A stretch of DNA of 63,897 nt. Origin: an uncultured Erysipelotrichaceae bacterium. GTDB taxonomy: Bacteria > Bacillota_I > Bacilli_A > RFN20 > CAG-826. The notes under the pieces were generated by a model. It had not been told where the DNA came from. It worked only from the letters and a program-made list of their open reading frames with translations, and did no database searches. The DNA lies in assembly GCA_902800355.1 (NCBI GenBank), contig CADCEE010000009.1, forward strand, positions 1-63,897, read 5' to 3'. Positions 3,535 to 63,897 of the stretch are shown here, piece by piece (the stretch's first letter is position 1; each line of letters starts with the position of its first letter). Position numbers and translations under genes: made by a program.

Positions 3535-6500
3535 TTAGAGAACGTAAGTAATAACAAAGCTTACAATTCTAACTTGGTTATCTTTAGCAGTGAATACGAC
3601 AGATTCAAGATCGCCTTCCCATGTTCCAACTTTGCCAGCGGTTTCATAGGTATAGCCTTCAGGAGCGCCTTCACCCCAACAGCCAGGACCTTGTTTTGTA
3701 GTACCATTAGCAGTACATGTAATAACAATTTTACTGATTTTTCCACCAGTTACAGAAATGGTCATTACTTTGTTCTTGAAAACTCTAAATTCTTCAGAAG
3801 TATTTGTTCCGACTGCGGTAATAGAAACATCACCACTTAATCCGCCAATAGATTTGCCTGCAGTACCACCATCAACAGCTTCAAATGCATTTGGAGTAAT
3901 TGTAACTGTTTGTTCAGTTGGAACACCACCAGCAGTAACTGTAACAGAATATGTACCAGTCTTTCCTAAAGAAGATTCTGTCGCTGTGATTGTAACAGGG
4001 GTTTCACTTGCTTTAACGCCAGTGACTTCACCGGTTGCAGAATCAACAGTAGCAACTGTTGGATCAGAAGATGACCAAGTAACAGTACCCATAACAGCTC
4101 TAGCTGGATATGGAGCAGCAGTTAATGTAATCTTTGAACCTTCTTTAACGGTTTTAGCACCAGAAATGTCTACTCTTTCTAAATCTGGAACTTCAGGGGC
4201 AGCAGCAGCGACGATAATTGGATTATCATAGTTGCCATCTAAGTCTTTATTAGTGAATTCATAAGTTGTGGAGTTACCAACATACTTAACACCCCAACCA
4301 GTAGCGGTAATTGTATAATCAACTAAAGCGTCTTTCTCTTGAGGTAAGGTAAGTTCGCCATCTTGTGAATTATATAGTTCAAAATATTCGGCTGTTGCGC
4401 CATCGCTTGATTTTAACCAAACAACACGACCATTCTTGCCCATAGCATCGTTTTTGCTAACAACGCCTCTAACGAACATTTTTTGAGGTGATTTAACGTT
4501 ATCACCAAGTTTATTTAGTAATGCGACAGCTTCTTCTGGAGTTAATGGATCTTCGAGTGTGCCGTAATCAATTGTTTCATTAGAAACAGTGATAGCACAT
4601 GTTCCAGTTACGCCAGAAGTTGCAGTTGCAGTAATTGTAGCTGTACCTTGAGCAACACCAGTAACTTTGCCATCATTATCAACGGCAGCAACTGCGCTGT
4701 CGCTTGTACTCCATTTGACAAAGTCAGTAGAGTTGCCAGGAGTTAAAGTAGCTTTCAAGCTAACTGCTTCACCAATAGCAATTGTTTTAGATGCAGGTTC
4801 AACAGCAACAGCGGTTGCAGGAACAGCACCACCAATGGTGTATAAGTGTGATGCAACAACTTTATGTTCAGATGGTTTTCCTAATGAGAATGTAGTTTTT
4901 CCGTCTTGAGTACCAACTTCAAAGACTTCATTATCAACAAGAACTTCTAAACGGAAGTCTGTTGTGAATTTGAATTTAGCTTCAGAATAAGCAACTTCAG
5001 TATCTGGAACGACATCACCAACAAATCCAAGATTATAGTGTTTTGTGGTTGTGCCATCTTTAGTTGTTTCATTCATCGCAACACCTAAAACTTTGGTGGT
5101 TTCGCCATAAGTTAAGGAGATGGTGTATTTATAATCTTCTTCACTACCAATAGCGACTCTTGCGGTTGCAGCGTCATCTAAGGATTCAGTACCGCTAATA
5201 TAGAATTTAGCTCCGCCTTCAGCCATCTTGTTTTGACAGAAGATATCACCACTTGATAATGGTGTAGCTAAGACGTAATCAACGCCAGTTTCTAAAGATT
5301 CGGCCATGTTGATTGAACGGACAGGAACTACATTGACTAAGCAATATGCATGTACAGTACCGCAAGTTGCGACTAATCTAGCACTGCCTTCAGCGACTGG
5401 ATGGATCTTATTTTCAACGATTGTGAAGACTTCAGTGTTTTCACTTTCCCAAGTAATGACTCCACCATTAATGCTAGCTGGATATGTAGCACCAAATCCA
5501 GTTAAGTCATAATCGTCATCTTGAACAGAAATTTCAAGTTTAGTTTTAACTAATTCAATCAAAGAAATCGAGCTATTATCTGGACCAGCAACTAAAGAAG
5601 CAGAGTCGGTTTCTAATGTACCACCATAGTTATATAATTTTGCATAAACTTTAACAACAGAACCTTTATCGATAGCGGAATCTTGTTCTACGGTTGTATT
5701 AACGTGATAGCAGTAGAATTCTTTTTCAGTACCAGCAAGATAGAATGTTGTGCTCTTATAACCATCATGGTGGTGTTCTTTTACTCTTGTAACAGCACCA
5801 GAGATGTAATATTTTTGAGCTGATTTGCTTCCTTCGCTTAATGCTCCGCACATTAAGATAGCATCATCAGCGGTTAATGGATCATCTTCAGTACCAGCGT
5901 GGATACTATAAGAAACTAAAACAGAAACAACGACATCCTCATAACCAGCTGATTTAGCGGTAACAGTTGCGCTACCTTCACTAACAGCTTTAATAACACC
6001 ACTTGCGTCAACGGTAGCAACAGTTGGATCAGATGATTCAAAGGTAATTGCTTGTGTAGAACTTCCTCTTGGGGCAATTCTGAATTTAACATCAGCTTCT
6101 TCACCTGCTTGTCTTAAGATTGCAGATGTAGAATCAGCTAAGAGCTTGACTGGGGTGCTATTATCGATACTATAAATTTCACCACTATCAGTTCCGCCTT
6201 TGTTACTATGTTTCTTAAGTGAAGCGTGAACCATAACTTTAGAACCGATATCTAAAGCTTCGGCTTGAGCAGCGGTAAATGTTGCTTTATAAACTTCAAG
6301 GTCGTTTTCACCGGCTTCCATATAGAATGAGCCTGTTCCACCTGATTTATTTGGATAGAAAGAGATGGATGTAACAACACCTTCTACATAATATGCTTTT
6401 GCAGATGGTGTGTCAGGTTCTAATTTAAGAGCTTCAGTATAAGCATCAGAAGCGGTAAATGGATTATCAGCTGTTTCACCTTTTTCAGGATTTCTAGCAG

Positions 6501-56283: not shown

Positions 56284-57510
56284 TTAGTTTTCTTTCTTCT
56301 TTCTAAAGAGGAAATATCCACCAACAGCTGCTAAACATGTAGCAGAAATTGAAATAATCACTATTATACTAACACTCGATTCAGTAATTGAACCAATTAT
56401 TCCAATTCTTCCAAATGAAGAAATAGATGGATATTTTTTTATTAATTGCGCTCTGATTTCTTGTAAAGAAACTTCGGCTGTATGAGAAGAACTTGTCTCA
56501 GGCGTATCATAAGTAACTAGACCAGATCCAGCCACAGAGGAAGCAATTCCACTGCCACCTGTAGATTCTAGACTGTCATATGTTGATACAAATGTACTAG
56601 CTTCAGATTGGCTTAAATGACAAATAGAGCTAGTAAAGTTCTTTCCGGCATAGGAATAAGAACCAAGTTTGCTTTTTAGAGAAATTAAGAGTTCTATAAC
56701 TGGTTTATAAGTATCACTTACTCCGTAAAAATAAATGCCACCATCGCTTAATATTAAATCTCCGGTTTCTTGTCCTCCGTTATTGTTGCTAAATTTAACA
56801 TAGGCTGCACTGCCGGATAATGTATATTGCATAATGTTTAATCCAGAAAACTCTGTCTCGCCTACAAAAGCCTTTAGCCTTAAGGATGAATCGCTCATAG
56901 TTTTTCCTGGATAAGACCCTGCAGAAGCAGTGCCTCCCCAGAAATATGCGGTAACAGATCTAGATGTATGCCATGAGTATCCATCTACAAAATAAAATGT
57001 AGAGTTTTGGGCGTTATCTCTAATTTCACCAATTCTATAAACTTCAGCTTTAAATAATTTTTTACTGCCAGAATCAGCAACCCAACCGATGCCTTTTATT
57101 TGAAATTCGTATCCTGGCTGAAATTTACTATCATCAATCCAAATATATCCACCATCATATTGATATTCCCATTGTGTTCCATTTTCCTTAAAAAAACATC
57201 CCATTTTGTCATATGTGCTACCAGAAGAAATGTCCTTAACGTAATTTCCAAGGCTTTGATTATATTTAGCATTGCTAGAACTTAGAACAACATTATTGCC
57301 TGATCCATTGCCACCAATTCTAATATCGGTAATTGTTCCCCATCCGCTAGTATTAAAATCTAAATAAACACGAATGGTCGAACTATAATCAGCAGCTTCA
57401 ACTGTGGCAGGTTTAGCAGCTTCTTTTGTTAATGCCACACCAGCAAATGCACCAACGCCTAAAAGCGCAGCAAATGCGGTAGTTAAAAATAATTTTCTTT
57501 TAACTCTCAT
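56284..57510 (-). CDS. Array protein A: membrane-anchored surface protein with starch-binding (CBM26-like) module
   Basis: Signal peptide ending VEA; FYFVDGYSW...AYFWGG...YPGKTM...VKFSNN; Cys stalk; TM + RKKKEN. Confidence 0.65.
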   Translation of the reverse strand: MRVKRKLFLTTAFAALLGVGAFAGVALTKEAAKPATVEAADYSSTIRVYLDFNTSGWGTITDIRIGGNGSGNNVVLSSSNAKYNQSLGNYVKDISSGSTYDKMGCFFKENGTQWEYQYDGGYIWIDDSKFQPGYEFQIKGIGWVADSGSKKLFKAEVYRIGEIRDNAQNSTFYFVDGYSWHTSRSVTAYFWGGTASAGSYPGKTMSDSSLRLKAFVGETEFSGLNIMQYTLSGSAAYVKFSNNNGGQETGDLILSDGGIYFYGVSDTYKPVIELLISLKSKLGSYSYAGKNFTSSICHLSQSEASTFVSTYDSLESTGGSGIASSVAGSGLVTYDTPETSSSHTAEVSLQEIRAQLIKKYPSISSFGRIGIIGSITESSVSIIVIISISATCLAAVGGYFLFRKKKEN

Positions 57511-57614
57511 AAATAAAACCTCCCGAAAGTTCTATAAATGTAGATTGAGATTACTTTACATTAACTTACAAATTATCACAACACTTTTTATTAAATAAAA
57601 ATAGAATTAAATTA

Positions 57615-57635
57615 CGGAATTTAAAAAAGGCGACA
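57615..57635 (-). terminator. Intrinsic terminator after array gene B
   Basis: AAGGCGAC-AAA-GTCGCCTT with a U-tract on the minus strand. Confidence 0.8.
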
Positions 57636-57701
57636 AAGTCGCCTTCTGTATCAAATTCTATCTAACATTATAACTTTCGGGAGTCGATAGAAATTGTTAC
57701 C

Positions 57702-59252
57702 TTAATCGTTTTTCTTCTTTTTAAATAAGAAGTATCCACCAATAGCCGCAATAGAAACTGAACTAATTGCGATGATGGCAATCATGCTTCCAGTAGAACC
57801 ATTAACGATAGAATTAATTAAAATTGCACCACTGCCTGATTTTGCAGGTTTTCTATTCATAAAGTCATGATATTGTCCCGCTGCTGTGCCATATCCATAT
57901 TTGCTCAAAATACGATCATATCTTGCTGCACATTGTTCAATTAATGTACCGCCTTGATTTGCGGATGCCGTTGCAAGAATACCTTTTGCCCCTTCGGTTA
58001 AATCATTGTACTTGTATTCCATTGAAGCGGTACCGCTGACTTGGTTCCAAACATTTATATTGAATGTAGTAGAATCTGAAGTACAAGTAATAGCTGCTAA
58101 GAATGCGGTGGCATATGTTGTAGCTTCGCTAGTAGAATCTTGTTGAATCCACAATTTATTAGTACCCTCAGTGGTCTTTAAATAAATTTCATATGTACCA
58201 GCAACTGCAACTTTAATTCTATATCCAGTTGAATCTGGATCAGTTCCTTGAATAATTGATCCATTAGTAACAACTTTGCTTGTTTGATCAACTTGACTCC
58301 ATCCGTACCAATCGCTTCCTTGGTAAACAATTTTGAATTCGGTGTTTGCCGCGAAAGCTTTTGTAATACGATATTGAGAGTTTTCTCCTGGCTCCATTAA
58401 GTAATTAGGATCTGAAGCATTCCAGTTATTCATTGTTCCAGCAACATACGCTTCGGTTTTCACTGTCTCTTTTGCATAAAGAGTTTTATTTGCCGTAAGA
58501 ATGTCATTAAATTGTGTTGATAAAGCGTTTGTTGTATACCAACCGCCAAATGTATATCCAAAAATGTCATAGTTTTCACTCATTTTGTAATACTTTGACA
58601 TAGTTATGGACTTACTGGCTAATTCAGTGGTTGTACCAGTTTTAATCGCCTTAGCAGTCACAGTAACATCTCCCCATGTGTTGGTTTGGGCAGTATTATC
58701 AAGATTGGCGTTCATCTTCCAACCACTATCGTTATAAATATAACTATTAACTTTTTTTCCAATTCCCCATCCGCTATGTAATCCAACTGCAGAGCCGTTA
58801 ACATCAAACCAGTTCCACCAACTATTGCCAACTGCTTTGTAAGAGAATGCAGTTACCCACTCTGGAAAAACCATTGTGAAGTTTTTAGACCCAGTTGGAC
58901 AAAGAAGATATTTTTCTTGCTCGGTATTTGACATATATGACCAGCCTTTAGTAGAAGGCATTGAGGAACCAGATGTTGTTGTATATGTACTACGTGCACC
59001 CAAGTAGCTTGTTAAAAATGACCTCCACGCTGCATGATCATAACCGCTTGCGAAAGAAATGGATTCGATAGCTAATACAGGAGTTGTTGTTACTTGGTCT
59101 TCAATGTAAACCCTAGTAACAGTTTTGGAAACTACAGCTTCAGCTTTAGTAGCGTTACCTTTTTGAGAAGCAACAGAAACACCGATACCAGCGGCAAGAG
59201 CAGTTGATAATAATAATCCACTTACAAGTTTTTTAAGTTTCATAATTTTCAC
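57702..59252 (-). CDS. Array protein B: surface protein with InlB-B/Listeria-Bacteroides repeat and SusE/F-like module
   Basis: Signal peptide ending AEA; GYTFGGWY...LYAK; YVAGTMNNW...FKIV...WYG...AGTYEIYL; Cys stalk with ARYD; TM + KKKKND. Start is GTG 59252 or ATG 59243. Confidence 0.65.
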   Translation of the reverse strand: MKIMKLKKLVSGLLLSTALAAGIGVSVASQKGNATKAEAVVSKTVTRVYIEDQVTTTPVLAIESISFASGYDHAAWRSFLTSYLGARSTYTTTSGSSMPSTKGWSYMSNTEQEKYLLCPTGSKNFTMVFPEWVTAFSYKAVGNSWWNWFDVNGSAVGLHSGWGIGKKVNSYIYNDSGWKMNANLDNTAQTNTWGDVTVTAKAIKTGTTTELASKSITMSKYYKMSENYDIFGYTFGGWYTTNALSTQFNDILTANKTLYAKETVKTEAYVAGTMNNWNASDPNYLMEPGENSQYRITKAFAANTEFKIVYQGSDWYGWSQVDQTSKVVTNGSIIQGTDPDSTGYRIKVAVAGTYEIYLKTTEGTNKLWIQQDSTSEATTYATAFLAAITCTSDSTTFNINVWNQVSGTASMEYKYNDLTEGAKGILATASANQGGTLIEQCAARYDRILSKYGYGTAAGQYHDFMNRKPAKSGSGAILINSIVNGSTGSMIAIIAISSVSIAAIGGYFLFKKKKND

Positions 59253-59376
59253 TTGTCACCAATAGCGGCCTAGCGACTACTCCTTTCTGAGAGTAAAAGT
59301 AACTTTGCTATCTCAAATTTTGAGGGCTTATCACTTTAGGAATAAATATTCCAAAAGTTTGATAAAAGTTGTATTT

Positions 59377-59405
59377 AATATACCCCCCCCCCGTTGCTTT
59401 GTCAA
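59377..59405 (-). promoter_or_regulatory. SigA promoter with a G10 homopolymer in the spacer
   Basis: TTGACA (59400-59405), AAGCAAC+G10 = 17 nt, TATATT (59377-59382). Confidence 0.8.
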
Positions 59406-59772
59406 CATGTAAATATCATTATACTCTGTATAATGCTATTGTTGAAAAAACGCTATTTTTAACCTCTTCACTTTTGTTTTTAAGTTTTTATTCAAAGGGA
59501 CAATTTTGCGATTTCTCTATTTGTTTTTTTCGACATCAAATCTCAGTATTTTTTTACTCATCAAAAAAGGAAATTTGATACTTCAATTTTCTATTTAATC
59601 TGCTTTTATAAACATTGATGGTTTTAAGGCTTTTAATATTGATAAATATTTGTAACGTGATTTTATTCATCTTTTATATGAAATCCTCTTAAAACGCCTA
59701 TTTGCGCGCATAAACACGCACGGATATAAAAAGCGGACCAATCGGCCCGCTTAGACTAGATTAACTAGTTAA

Positions 59773-61230
59773 TTAGTTATGTCTTTTCTTTTTGACTAAG
59801 ACTAAGGTAGCAAACGCTAATGCACTGATAGCAGCAACAGCAATAAATACAGTTGTTGATCCTTCGTCTTCTTCGTTTAATCCGTAAACAATATTAGCAT
59901 TAGCAGTTTTACCTTCTGTCCATGGATTTTCGCCTAACGCTCTTGCCCATGCAGTATATCTATCATAAGCATTTTTAAATTGTTCAGTCTTTGAAGTAGC
60001 ATATCCTTGGAAAACAGTTTTTTCTGTAGCTGATAAACCAAGATAAACAGCCTTCATTGCTGGAAATCTATTTTCATCACCACAGTGACCAGCATATTCG
60101 CCCATGCCCATTAATTTTGCGGCTAAATGTTCAGCATTTAATGAACCTTCTAATTCAATAGAAATCTTTTTACCTTCAGCATATGTGTTATCGGTAAAAT
60201 AGAAATTATATGTTCCACGTGCATAACAAGTAATATCGCTATCACCATCACCGCTGAAATAATGATATGCTCCACAAGATTCTAAAATCCATGAATAACC
60301 AAAATAACAAGTAATATCGCTATCACCATCACCGCTGAAATAATGATATGCTCCACAAGATTCTAAAATCCATGAATAACCAAAATAAGAATCTAAAGAA
60401 GACCCATCATAGTATGCAATTTTAAACACATCACCAAACTCTAATTGAACTTGTCCTTCGTATTGACTACCTGTATTAGGTAATTGAACGGCGCCTTCCA
60501 TTCCCCACTCGCAGGAACCGAAATCTCCAACGATATATCTACCAGTAGGATATGTTTTATTCCACTGAGCATATAAAGTGATTGTTTCATCAGCTTTAGA
60601 ACTACTGATGTGTTGTTTGTCCGAATAAGAATCGCCTGATCCATCGGCTTTAGTGTTCCATCCAGTAAAAGCATATCCGGTTCTAGTGAAAGCATTTTGA
60701 GTAAGTTCGTTACCAGCAGAAGCGTCACAGTAGCATGTCATATTTGCCATTGTGCCTTCTCCACCATTTTTATCAAATGCAACTGTAAAGAATGTTAATG
60801 TCCAAGATCCCATTGGATAATTTTCGGTATAATCGTCTTTTGTATTGTAATAACCTGTAACATTATTTCCTGGCCATGCATCTTTCCATTCACTAATAAC
60901 ACCCCAGTCTTGGTTTTCCGCTCTAAAATATTGGAATTTAAAGCCATTAACATCAGAAGGGAAAGTATATTTATAAACGCTTTGGCCCATGTTGTTTGTG
61001 TAAGCATAAGTCATTGGTTTATATTGATCTCCGGTTGCTTCTGACCAATAAAAGGCGTTTGGTGCCTTGTCGTAAGATTGAGATGGTCTAGTGTAATAAA
61101 TTGTTTCACCTGATGATAAAGCATCAGCAACGATAGGTTTAGATGATTCCTTTGCTAATGAAGCGCCGCCTAAAGCACCGACGCCTATAAGCGCTGCAAA
61201 TGCGGTAGATAAAATGAATCCTTTTCTCAT
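59773..61230 (-). CDS. Array protein C: surface protein with CBM26-like, InlB-B repeat and SusE/F-like modules
   Basis: IYYTRP...PNAFYW...MT...YKYTFP; VAFDKNGGEG...RTGYAFTGWNTKADGSG...LYAQW; YIVGDF...FKI...GTYNFYF; TM + KKKRHN. Confidence 0.7.
   Translation of the reverse strand: MRKGFILSTAFAALIGVGALGGASLAKESSKPIVADALSSGETIYYTRPSQSYDKAPNAFYWSEATGDQYKPMTYAYTNNMGQSVYKYTFPSDVNGFKFQYFRAENQDWGVISEWKDAWPGNNVTGYYNTKDDYTENYPMGSWTLTFFTVAFDKNGGEGTMANMTCYCDASAGNELTQNAFTRTGYAFTGWNTKADGSGDSYSDKQHISSSKADETITLYAQWNKTYPTGRYIVGDFGSCEWGMEGAVQLPNTGSQYEGQVQLEFGDVFKIAYYDGSSLDSYFGYSWILESCGAYHYFSGDGDSDITCYFGYSWILESCGAYHYFSGDGDSDITCYARGTYNFYFTDNTYAEGKKISIELEGSLNAEHLAAKLMGMGEYAGHCGDENRFPAMKAVYLGLSATEKTVFQGYATSKTEQFKNAYDRYTAWARALGENPWTEGKTANANIVYGLNEEDEGSTTVFIAVAAISALAFATLVLVKKKRHN
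60223..60388. repeat. Perfect 81-bp in-frame tandem duplication
   Basis: 60223-60303 equals 60304-60384, with ATAA microhomology at the ends; duplicates YFGYSWILESCGAYHYFSGDGDSDITC. Confidence 0.95.
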
Positions 61231-61383
61231 ATAAAATCTCCTTTTGGTTTTATAAATAAAAAACGATTGTGTAGATTTATTTTACTACTATATTAATAAA
61301 CCACAAAGAAAAAGTGTTCTGACAAAAAAGGCCAGGAAATAATCCTGACCTTCATAAACAATAATTTAATAGAACCAGTCTAA

Positions 61384-62526
61384 TTAATTATGTCTTTTCT
61401 TCTTAAATACTAATAAGAGAGTAAATGCCAAAGCAGAAACTGCAGAAACGGAAATAACAACAATTAATATGCTAGAATTTCCAATCTCTCCGATACTATG
61501 GTTAATATAAATCGACGCTCTAGGTGTATCACTACTATTGACGATAAAGTGTGTTAAGCCTGGATGACTAAGAAGAGCTTGATCATATCTTGCTAATGCC
61601 CTACCTAAATTGTCACCTTCTTTATCAGCTTTTCCACCATAAACATAATCTTTTGCGTCGTTGCTTAATTTAGCATATTCGCTAGCGCATGAAGCCCAAC
61701 CAGTAGGTTCATTAACGCCGGTTGCATCACAACCAACGTTATTTAAGAAATATGATGCCCATCCATCTGCATCAACGATATCTTGTCTAGTAATCCATAA
61801 CTTTTTAGTTTCGGTATCGAAATAAAAATCGTATGTACCAGCAATTAAACATTTGATATTAGGGTTTTCAGGACTGACTTCCTCCATGCTTCCACCATCA
61901 ATTGCGCCGGCTAATGCTTCAGGTCTTCCATAGAATCCAGACCATACTCCATCACCAGCAAGAATTTTGAATTCTTCATCCTTTACCAAAGTAACAGATC
62001 CGGAAACCTCAGGGTTGCCTGCGACGTTTAAGCCAATATTAGATAGAGTTGCTTTTTTCTCAAAAGGTGGAACTTGATTGCTTCTAACTTCGGCTGAAAC
62101 AGTCCATTGTGAAGTGCCAGGATAATCCCATCCGTTTTCAATATATGTGGCTTCTTTAAATTCTAAATCACCAGTTTGATTCCATTTTTTTCCATCATCC
62201 CAACTACCTTGTGTTTCGCTTGGATTCATTCTAACCCAAATTAATTTAGTTGGAGTAAAACTCACATTGTAATCAAATTTGTAAAGTAATGTGGTGCTTG
62301 TTGTTGTTTGAAGAGATGTCCAATAGTCGTTTGTATCATCTGTCATGTACGCACAAATTTTCGCACCAGCCTCAAACCAATTATGGTTTTCTTGAAATTT
62401 AACTACTAAACTTCCTGATGTAGATTCCGCCTTAACTTCAGCAACTTTTCTTTGATGTGCACCAACGGCTACACCAACACCTAAAGCCATTGCTAAAGTT
62501 GTAGCAAAAATTAATCCTTTCTTCAT
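61384..62526 (-). CDS. Array protein D: Trp-rich surface protein with SusE/F-like module
   Basis: Signal peptide ending VKA; NWFEAGA...WVRMNP...WNQTGDL; EFKI...AGTYDFYF; Cys stalk with ARYD; TM + KKKRHN. Confidence 0.65.
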   Translation of the reverse strand: MKKGLIFATTLAMALGVGVAVGAHQRKVAEVKAESTSGSLVVKFQENHNWFEAGAKICAYMTDDTNDYWTSLQTTTSTTLLYKFDYNVSFTPTKLIWVRMNPSETQGSWDDGKKWNQTGDLEFKEATYIENGWDYPGTSQWTVSAEVRSNQVPPFEKKATLSNIGLNVAGNPEVSGSVTLVKDEEFKILAGDGVWSGFYGRPEALAGAIDGGSMEEVSPENPNIKCLIAGTYDFYFDTETKKLWITRQDIVDADGWASYFLNNVGCDATGVNEPTGWASCASEYAKLSNDAKDYVYGGKADKEGDNLGRALARYDQALLSHPGLTHFIVNSSDTPRASIYINHSIGEIGNSSILIVVISVSAVSALAFTLLLVFKKKRHN

Positions 62527-62680: not shown

Positions 62681-63897
62681 TTATTTTTGTTTCTTCTTTT
62701 TGAAGATTAATAAGAGTGAGAACATCAATGCGGATGAAGCAGCAACTGCGATAATGATAATAGCAACACTACTATTGTTGACGATTGCTAAATCACCATA
62801 ATATAAGCTTGATCCATTAACTGCAATTTCAGCAATTTTACCAAGTTGTTCAACAACACTCTTATAGGACCAAAGAACATTTTCTGTTTTTGAAGTGTCT
62901 TTCCAAGTATAAACGGTTGTGCAGTCAATATATGTTTTTGCAACTTCGCTATCGAAACCGTTATAAATATTAACGATAACTTCTGCATCTATTTTAGAAA
63001 CATTACAGACAGACCAGTCTGCAGCTGCATTTCTTTTTGCTTCAGCAATTTTTAAGAATTCAATGGCGTCACCAGCTTCAACATTAGCAGGTCCCTCCCA
63101 CCAATAAGCGGCTTCAGAGACAAGTGCTCTTTCCTCAGATTTAACTTCACCACCATTGTTAAACATAAACATAGTGTCACCAGCTGGATAACCAATGGTC
63201 ACCGGAATTTCATAAATGAGTTTAGCGGTTTCTCCGCCTTGGAAATGGATGACACCATTGCCAGTTAATTCTTCAACATCTGTAACAGCAGTAATAGCGG
63301 TTCCTGGCCATGCACCAAATTGTTCACTTCCACCCCAAGAATAAATGTAATCAATGGTTGGTTCTGCGCTGTTTGATACATAGTAGATACAAGTCTCAGT
63401 AGATCCGTGTTTGAGAATGCTTACATGGCCATCATAAACAACAAAATCATATGTACCAGTCTCAGATAAACGTAACCATTGTCTACCACCGCCTGTGACA
63501 TATTTACTAGAATATTCATCTACCATGTCGTAGAATGCACCATCTAACTCAACAGAGCCATCAGAAATCCATTCCACCCAATGGTTGTATTCATATTCAA
63601 AATTTCTGACAGCAAAGACTCCATTTCCAGGTTCTTTAACAAAACTATATTGTTCTACTTCATCTTCTTCATGGATTTTAAAAGACTCACATGGATCACC
63701 CCAGATTTTATCGTCGCAGAATTTCCAGTGATCACCTTCCCAAGCATTACCAAATTGCCATTGAATAGCAACATAACCTGTGTCTTTATCAATCGAAGAA
63801 AATGAAGAATCGCCAAATTTAGTAATATCAACTGACCATTTGTCACCTTCATCTTTTTGATGAATAACCCAGTTTGCACCGGTAATAACTTGATCTT
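62681..63897 (-). CDS. Array protein E (5' end outside window): surface protein with CBM26-like module
   Basis: The frame of the 62681..63577 ORF stays open to the window edge (DQVITGANWVIH...). IYYV...YIYSWGG...AWPGT...FMFNNG; Cys stalk; TM + KKKKQK. Confidence 0.7.
   Translation of the reverse strand, partial: DQVITGANWVIHQKDEGDKWSVDITKFGDSSFSSIDKDTGYVAIQWQFGNAWEGDHWKFCDDKIWGDPCESFKIHEEDEVEQYSFVKEPGNGVFAVRNFEYEYNHWVEWISDGSVELDGAFYDMVDEYSSKYVTGGGRQWLRLSETGTYDFVVYDGHVSILKHGSTETCIYYVSNSAEPTIDYIYSWGGSEQFGAWPGTAITAVTDVEELTGNGVIHFQGGETAKLIYEIPVTIGYPAGDTMFMFNNGGEVKSEERALVSEAAYWWEGPANVEAGDAIEFLKIAEAKRNAAADWSVCNVSKIDAEVIVNIYNGFDSEVAKTYIDCTTVYTWKDTSKTENVLWSYKSVVEQLGKIAEIAVNGSSLYYGDLAIVNNSSVAIIIIAVAASSALMFSLLLIFKKKKQK

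Follow-up and report, generated by a model that had tools for sequence, protein, structure and literature searches.

Slippage at simple sequence repeats is itself a known mechanism of expression control, and it has long been studied in pathogens. In Neisseria, poly-C promoters related to that of porA are those of opc and fetA. The porA gene of Neisseria meningitidis encodes a surface protein and carries a G homopolymer in the spacer between its -35 and -10 hexamers, and PMC3899988 describes how one G more or less alters its transcription; for hifA/hifB of Haemophilus influenzae the same paper describes a TA dinucleotide repeat that sets the -35/-10 spacing. In mycoplasmas, spacer indels switch the transcription of the surface-protein genes vlp, maa2 and vmm, and a T-tract beside the -10 box of the vpma promoter in M. 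agalactiae was found not to switch (PMC2268961).

Here we describe a promoter of comparable design in the window, by which we mean the whole stretch of DNA analysed, 63,897 nucleotides from an uncultured Erysipelotrichaceae bacterium. As in porA, a G homopolymer occupies the -35/-10 spacer of a surface-protein gene, here called gene B, and the single-G changes that alter the porA transcript have a counterpart in single-G differences between populations. Unlike the Gram-negative pathogen that carries porA, however, the present host is a low-GC, probably wall-less rumen commensal known from sequence alone, and it has one such tract per genome, abutting the -10 box. The resemblance to Mycoplasma hyorhinis vlp, M. 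arthritidis maa2 and M. mycoides vmm lies in the small, wall-less, low-GC hosts with spacer indels and in a conserved 5' module (promoter, leader and signal peptide) joined to differing protein bodies. The locus differs from these mycoplasma systems in that the repeat is poly-G and not poly-A or TA, in that the gene B product has an A-x-A signal peptide and a C-terminal helix without a lipobox, and in that the tract occurs at gene B only, with no repeat upstream of the three array genes that have intergenic upstream regions (starts 57510, 61230 and 62526) and hence no combinatorial family. The dinucleotide spacer repeat of hifA/hifB is matched by the (CA)7 of a gene B ortholog and by a (TC)7 promoter elsewhere in this genome, whereas the repeat units are others, the promoters here are not bidirectional, and in this genus the repeat comes after a CIRCE-like inverted repeat. 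A literature search for homopolymeric phase variation in RF39 found no paper naming that group, and another turned up an unrelated review, neither of which shows that the case is unpublished.

Promoter and product of gene B

All features of the locus lie on the minus strand. The -35 hexamer TTGACA (59400..59405) matches the consensus at six of six positions and is conserved in the related genome G003 and in the metagenome contig L017. It is followed by a 17-nt spacer (59383..59399) made up of AAGCAAC and a run of ten G (59383..59392). This run, the element proposed to be hypermutable, reads as C10 on the plus strand and adjoins the -10 hexamer TATATT (59377..59382). With 11 of 12 consensus matches and its 17-nt spacer, this promoter is the best of the 6 promoter-like sites detected by a consensus scan of 57500-61500, so that sequence and scan alike bear out the earlier note, which had placed TTGACA and TATATT exactly 17 nt apart on the minus strand upstream of gene B. 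Such sites are not enriched in this region (6 vs 15.9 +/- 4.2 in shuffles), and the unusual feature is therefore the tract itself rather than the occurrence of a promoter-like site. The tract had also been described as the sole long G/C homopolymer of the window; a search for G8 gave three overlapping matches, that is, one run, against 0.18 expected per shuffle.

Judging from the position of the -10 box, transcription would start near 59370 and yield a 5' leader at 59244..59370, the promoter lying approximately 127 nt upstream of gene B. The predicted leader contains a hairpin or palindrome, GGAATATTTATTCC (59352-59339), about 20 nt past the predicted start, which is kept in G003 and in a second relative, G011, with loop and stem letters altered. 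The leader as a whole folds weakly better than its shuffles (z-score -1.9), and an Rfam scan of 57000-62000 at E values up to 1 returned no match in promoter or leader. A strong Shine-Dalgarno-like sequence, AGAAAGGAG, is present at 59280-59288 (-), 37 nt before the ATG, and no start codon follows it at the customary spacing; a hairpin (GTCGCTAG...GTGAC) comes after it. The ATG of gene B itself has a weak GGTGA 12 nt upstream and nothing stronger beside it.

Eleven nucleotides upstream of the -35 box there is a perfect inverted repeat with 8-bp arms, CATTATAC-AGA-GTATAATG (59417..59435), which may be an operator or a hairpin. In G003 and L017 the same position reads CATTATGC-N3-GCATAATG, with both arms altered. 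A weaker promoter-like site, TCAACA-16-TATAAT (59445-59418; 10 of 12 matches), overlaps this inverted repeat.

Gene B (57702..59243) opens at the ATG at 59243 and codes for a protein of 513 aa. It is a real gene: the protein collection contains 44 homologs, all of them metagenomic, which make up a small, unnamed family. Its N-terminus reads as a basic and hydrophobic signal peptide of the A-x-A type (MKLKK...KAEA), and its C-terminus as a hydrophobic membrane helix followed by a KKKKND tail. From these segments the product is predicted to be exported and anchored in the membrane, in keeping with the surface protein that had been proposed. A Flg_new (Listeria-Bacteroides) repeat scored 26.8 bits against a cut-off of 27. 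Weak leads point to a possible alpha-glucan (starch/glycogen)-binding module: among 21 family members, X25_BaPul_like was found in 2 and AMPK1_CBM in 1, atlas matches score below 0.9, and there is a precomputed PF16411 label. A sequence search returned no informative match in the PDB (best E 0.56).

The C-terminal helix and basic tail of gene B recur in four ORFs that neighbour it on this strand, and a GH77 4-alpha-glucanotransferase and an alpha-amylase are encoded farther along from this array. An N-terminal signal could be read in three of the four neighbours; the fourth frame is open to the window's end, and the stretch above the 62681-63577 ORF falls inside that frame. Neither a lipobox cysteine at the end of the signal peptide nor an LPXTG motif was present in the four array proteins translated (B, A, C and D). 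A combinatorial lipoprotein system of the Vlp type was rejected on the grounds that three neighbours are without a repeat and four translated proteins without a lipobox. Sortase-anchored LPXTG surface proteins were likewise rejected, there being no LPXTG and no PBP transpeptidase found in the genome; the helix and tail of gene A gave a weak Gram_pos_anchor match, below the cut-off (E 0.026). The array gene at 59773-61230 (-) encodes a segment of about 26 residues that is repeated exactly within the protein (FGYSWILESCGAYHYFSGDGDSDITCY in two copies, residues ~283-335), a tandem coding repeat that might vary in copy number.

Tract length, genome background and repair functions

The genome under study (G000) comprises 1,138,734 bases at 33.9% GC and is 97.9% complete. 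In this entire 1.14-Mb sequence the G10 tract is the only run of G or C longer than 6. A composition model predicts 0.04 G/C runs of 10 or more, of which 1 is seen, 35 A runs of 9 or more, of which none is seen, and 37 T runs of 9 or more, of which 2 are seen; the genome strongly avoids homopolymers of 8 or more, and the tract stands out from this background as a locally hypermutable element would. Forty-nine sites in the genome reach at least 11 of 12 consensus matches, and the chance that a random 10-nt run would fall wholly within the spacer of such a site is 1.7e-4. The placement of G10 in a spacer is not due to chance. The longest homopolymer of the genome is a T17 run at C3:3721-3737. 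It falls in the 5' part of an ORF of 665 aa (3663-5660) and would there be translated as FFFFF, or it may lie upstream of the true start.

We compared tract lengths by aligning Logan contigs from four sequencing runs to positions 59100-59700. The runs that contain this stretch are labelled as bovine gut, bovine or gut metagenomes, and none is recorded as RNA; the contigs are consensus sequences and the comparison thus reveals differences between populations. The contigs of one run (X3) stop short of the tract. Together with the window assembly, which has 10 G, the other three give four assemblies with near-identical flanks and tracts of 9, 10, 11 and 12 G. Run X1 has 11 G, with one extra C on the plus strand and no substitutions, at a depth of 8.5; X1 may be the source sample, in which case the eleventh G may stem from a population that was mixed or from assemblers that disagreed. 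Run X2 has 9 G and 13 substitutions in 567 nt at a depth of 61-64, and the same length recurs in a second, more diverged X2 contig. Run X12 has 12 G (two extra C), which is weak evidence at a depth of 3.8 and with the tract near the contig end. The sole other indel across some 600 nt is one A after 59493, common to X2 and X12, which leaves the tract as the only private indel among the four assemblies; nearby A7 and T7 runs have the same length in all contigs compared. A metagenome scan anchored on both flanks with a free gap between them recovered one contig, L017, with G10.

Spacers of 16, 17, 18 and 19 nt thus exist in nature. Invariance of the tract, which the earlier note had set beforehand as speaking against its proposal, does not hold: length varies while the flanks are nearly unchanged, between populations and as read from consensus contigs, two of the three variant alleles (X1 at 8.5 and X12 at 3.8) having low depth in a class of sequence that is error-prone.

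Searches of the 97.9%-complete genome for MutS_I (MutS domain I), MutL_C and DNA_mis_repair (MutL) found none of them, which is not proof of absence, and recovered a single ORF with MutS_V (MutS domain V; 800 aa). This pattern suggests a lineage without canonical mismatch repair. A PBP transpeptidase was likewise not found at this level of completeness and Mur-ligase-like ORFs are reduced to one, of 411 aa; the cell is therefore probably wall-less, a state that fits anchoring of surface proteins through a membrane helix.

Recurrence of repeat-bearing promoters in relatives

Tracts of G8 or longer that abut TATAWT were found in 4 of the 23 genomes of the genus, in every case as exactly G10+TATATTAA. 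Including L017, the exact G10 is present in five assemblies of four species (G000, G003, L017, G011 and G013), in which the best -35 element lies at 17, 17, 17, 19 and 20 nt, respectively; it reads TTGACA in G003, L017 and G013 and TTTACA in G011. G10 does not, then, make a 17-nt spacer everywhere, and these distances count against the simple reading in which G10 equals 17 nt equals ON. It could be G10 itself, rather than the spacing, that is conserved. The coincidence of a shared G10 is not a strong one, however: G000, G003 and L017 are closely related, and overall no other length is as frequent as G10.

The only true ortholog of gene B among the 23 genomes, in G016 (50% identity), is without poly-G. 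Its promoter consists of TTGAAA, a 19-nt spacer (CA)7TGCGA and TATAGT, and this (CA)7 is the only (CA) repeat of five or more units in the G016 genome. Different unstable repeats at the same functional place in two species point to selection for a variable spacer. The 5' module that contains the inverted repeat, promoter, G10, leader and signal peptide (59135..59440, minus strand) has 83% nucleotide identity to a module in G003, where it is joined to the ortholog of another array gene (61384-62526): the protein encoded in G003 shares 65% identity with the product of that gene, but over its first 36 residues it shares 86% with gene B. In L017 the module is joined to a third protein body. The break between module and body falls directly past the signal peptide, and the occurrence of the same 5' module on different bodies marks it as portable.

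Across the order, 70 sites in 48 of 401 genomes carry a G8+ tract abutting TATAWT, where approximately 3 would be expected from composition by our own estimate and a backwards-pattern control gave 0. These represent 6% of all G8+ tracts (1,158 in 290 of the 401 genomes); among 20 of the other tracts, sampled in one family, about 7 form TTGACA or TTGAAA spacers beside variant -10 boxes. At the 70 order sites TTGACA is usually found upstream of the tract and -10 box, and the downstream ORFs mostly begin with signal-peptide, lipobox, pilin-like or membrane segments, few of them looking cytoplasmic. The 34 sites whose length was read comprise nine G8, seven G9, fourteen G10, three G11 and one G12. 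Where the TTGACA is perfect, the assembled spacers of poly-G promoters in the order, like those from GTDB described below, gather at 18-19 nt and not at 17; in one family, 8+G11, 9+G10 and 10+G9 all add up to a 19-nt spacer.

A search of GTDB for TTGACA-N(4-11)-G8-TATAWT recovered at least 120 stretches, the matches listed including uncultured Bacilli, Clostridia, Saccharibacteria, Treponema, Streptobacillus and Helicobacter. Among the 120 matches listed, spacers of 18 nt (35) and 19 nt (40) outnumber those of 17 nt (9), under a pattern that allowed about 19 nt at most. The rule that 17 nt is ON may therefore fail for G-rich spacers. Either the low state is the one captured in most of these assemblies, perhaps as the default, or the optimal length is greater for G-rich spacers; for the many 19-nt spacers of this kind we considered a MerR-like mechanism or A-form DNA.

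Other long repeats of this genome also lie in promoters. The (TC)7 at C1:74440-74453 (region 74410-74470) is located 42 nt upstream of the ATG that opens the gene for an exported protein of 484 aa, and the (TTC)6 at C12:81345-81362 (minus strand; region 81345-81387) precedes a leader of ~355 nt and a 1131-aa surface protein. Upstream of (TTC)6 is the inverted repeat TTAGCACTC-N9-GAGTGCTTG, and upstream of (TC)7 a degenerate copy of it. The CIRCE operator bound by HrcA is given as TTAGCACTC-N9-GAGTGCTAA in PMC3192767; the repeat-linked variant matches it except at the end, where it supplies the TTG of a -35 box and takes the form TTAGCACTC-N9-RAGTGCTTG. The genome under study also has canonical CIRCE copies, before two ClpB-like genes, and encodes hrcA.

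The variant occurs at 37 sites in 19 of the 23 genomes of the genus (control, 0). A simple repeat follows it directly in all 30 loci read (L216-L245; L169:1380-1440 is a further locus), being (CTT)4-7, (TC)7-10, (AAG)6, (CA)7 or (CTC)5, and a -10-like box follows the repeat in 29 of them, the sequence of the remaining locus being incomplete there. These promoters mostly precede exported proteins with a signal peptide or lipobox, and the number and even the type of unit differ between orthologous promoters. A literature search for the combination of a CIRCE operator with a repeat promoter found no title, which does not show novelty.

Slippage and its alternatives

We consider it probable that G10 is a hypermutable spacer of a sigma-70/sigma-A promoter under slipped-strand control. 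The slipped-strand interpretation of the earlier note gains support from the position of the tract in the spacer, its uniqueness in the genome, its length polymorphism, the (CA)7 of the ortholog, the failure to find canonical mismatch repair, the recurrence of the design across the order and the predicted export and membrane anchoring of the product. According to this model, replication slippage would add or remove G's in the spacer, probably frequently because the genome seems to be without MutS1/MutL mismatch repair, and each change in length would bring the -35 and -10 boxes into the 17-nt register or take them out of it. Expression would thus depend on tract length, with G10 (17 nt) as the putative high or ON state, and gene B transcription would rise or fall in subpopulations in a heritable and reversible way.

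An unlikely alternative is that G10 acts as a cis-element of fixed length, a binding site or rigid DNA next to the -10 box that sets the strength or regulation of the promoter, the length differences then being homopolymer errors or rare neutral variants with no switching. The exact G10+TATATTAA in 4 of 23 genomes and L017, despite differing upstream sequence and -35 distances, is the best argument for such an element, and the vpma T-tract shows that a repeat in this position need not act as a switch (PMC2268961); the low depth of two of the three variant alleles also fits. Errors would not account for the G9 of run X2, however, which was assembled at a depth of 61-64 in two contigs with no other private indel in 567 nt, and across the order the tracts in this position have lengths between 8 and 12 G. 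The (CA)7 at the same place in the ortholog argues for selection on instability or spacing and not on a G-specific site, and a genome that avoids homopolymers, and in which MutL was not found, could not keep a G10 stable.

The tract could also act at the RNA level, as part of the mRNA leader, if transcription began at the upstream TCAACA-16-TATAAT site. This we regard as very improbable: the site has its 10 of 12 matches, and its -10 box lies within the right arm of the conserved inverted repeat, but its -35 box is not kept in G003, the tract abuts a -10 box at 70 sites of the order, usually with TTGACA upstream, and the leader has no Rfam match. Some short-read data contain poly-G artefacts, for example as no-signal calls in two-colour chemistry, and the tract might in principle be an error of sequencing or assembly. 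That it lies inside a 63.9-kb contig and reappears in independent assemblies of four species, in one JGI contig and in three Logan runs, each time between the same boxes, reduces the probability of an artefact to almost nothing.

The slipped-strand promoter that we favour for gene B belongs to a design that is common in gut bacteria, as its presence in 48 of 401 order genomes and at least 120 GTDB stretches indicates, and the case itself is for that reason not surprising. Less expected is the fusion of CIRCE-like operators to the repeat-bearing promoters of surface proteins. We tentatively raise the possibility that contingency promoters form a toolkit shared across this genus, a rumen lineage that would have neither cell wall nor mismatch repair, with the G10 switch as one arm of it. 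Portable modules of promoter, leader and signal peptide, with mono-, di- or trinucleotide spacer repeats, would be recombined onto the bodies of surface proteins; in a second and commoner class, an operator of the CIRCE/HrcA type would supply the -35 box before the repeat, so that random slippage would act on top of a repression that responds to stress.

Most work on slippage-based expression switching concerns pathogens, and the present case would extend it to an uncultured, probably wall-less commensal of the cattle gut. The gene concerned encodes a predicted surface protein in a starch-utilisation cluster, beside an alpha-amylase and a GH77 4-alpha-glucanotransferase, and such a switch would make subpopulations that differ in their surface make-up, a difference that bears on substrate binding and on the pressure exerted by phages or the host. 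Functional states of this kind would be hidden by the single consensus sequences of MAGs.
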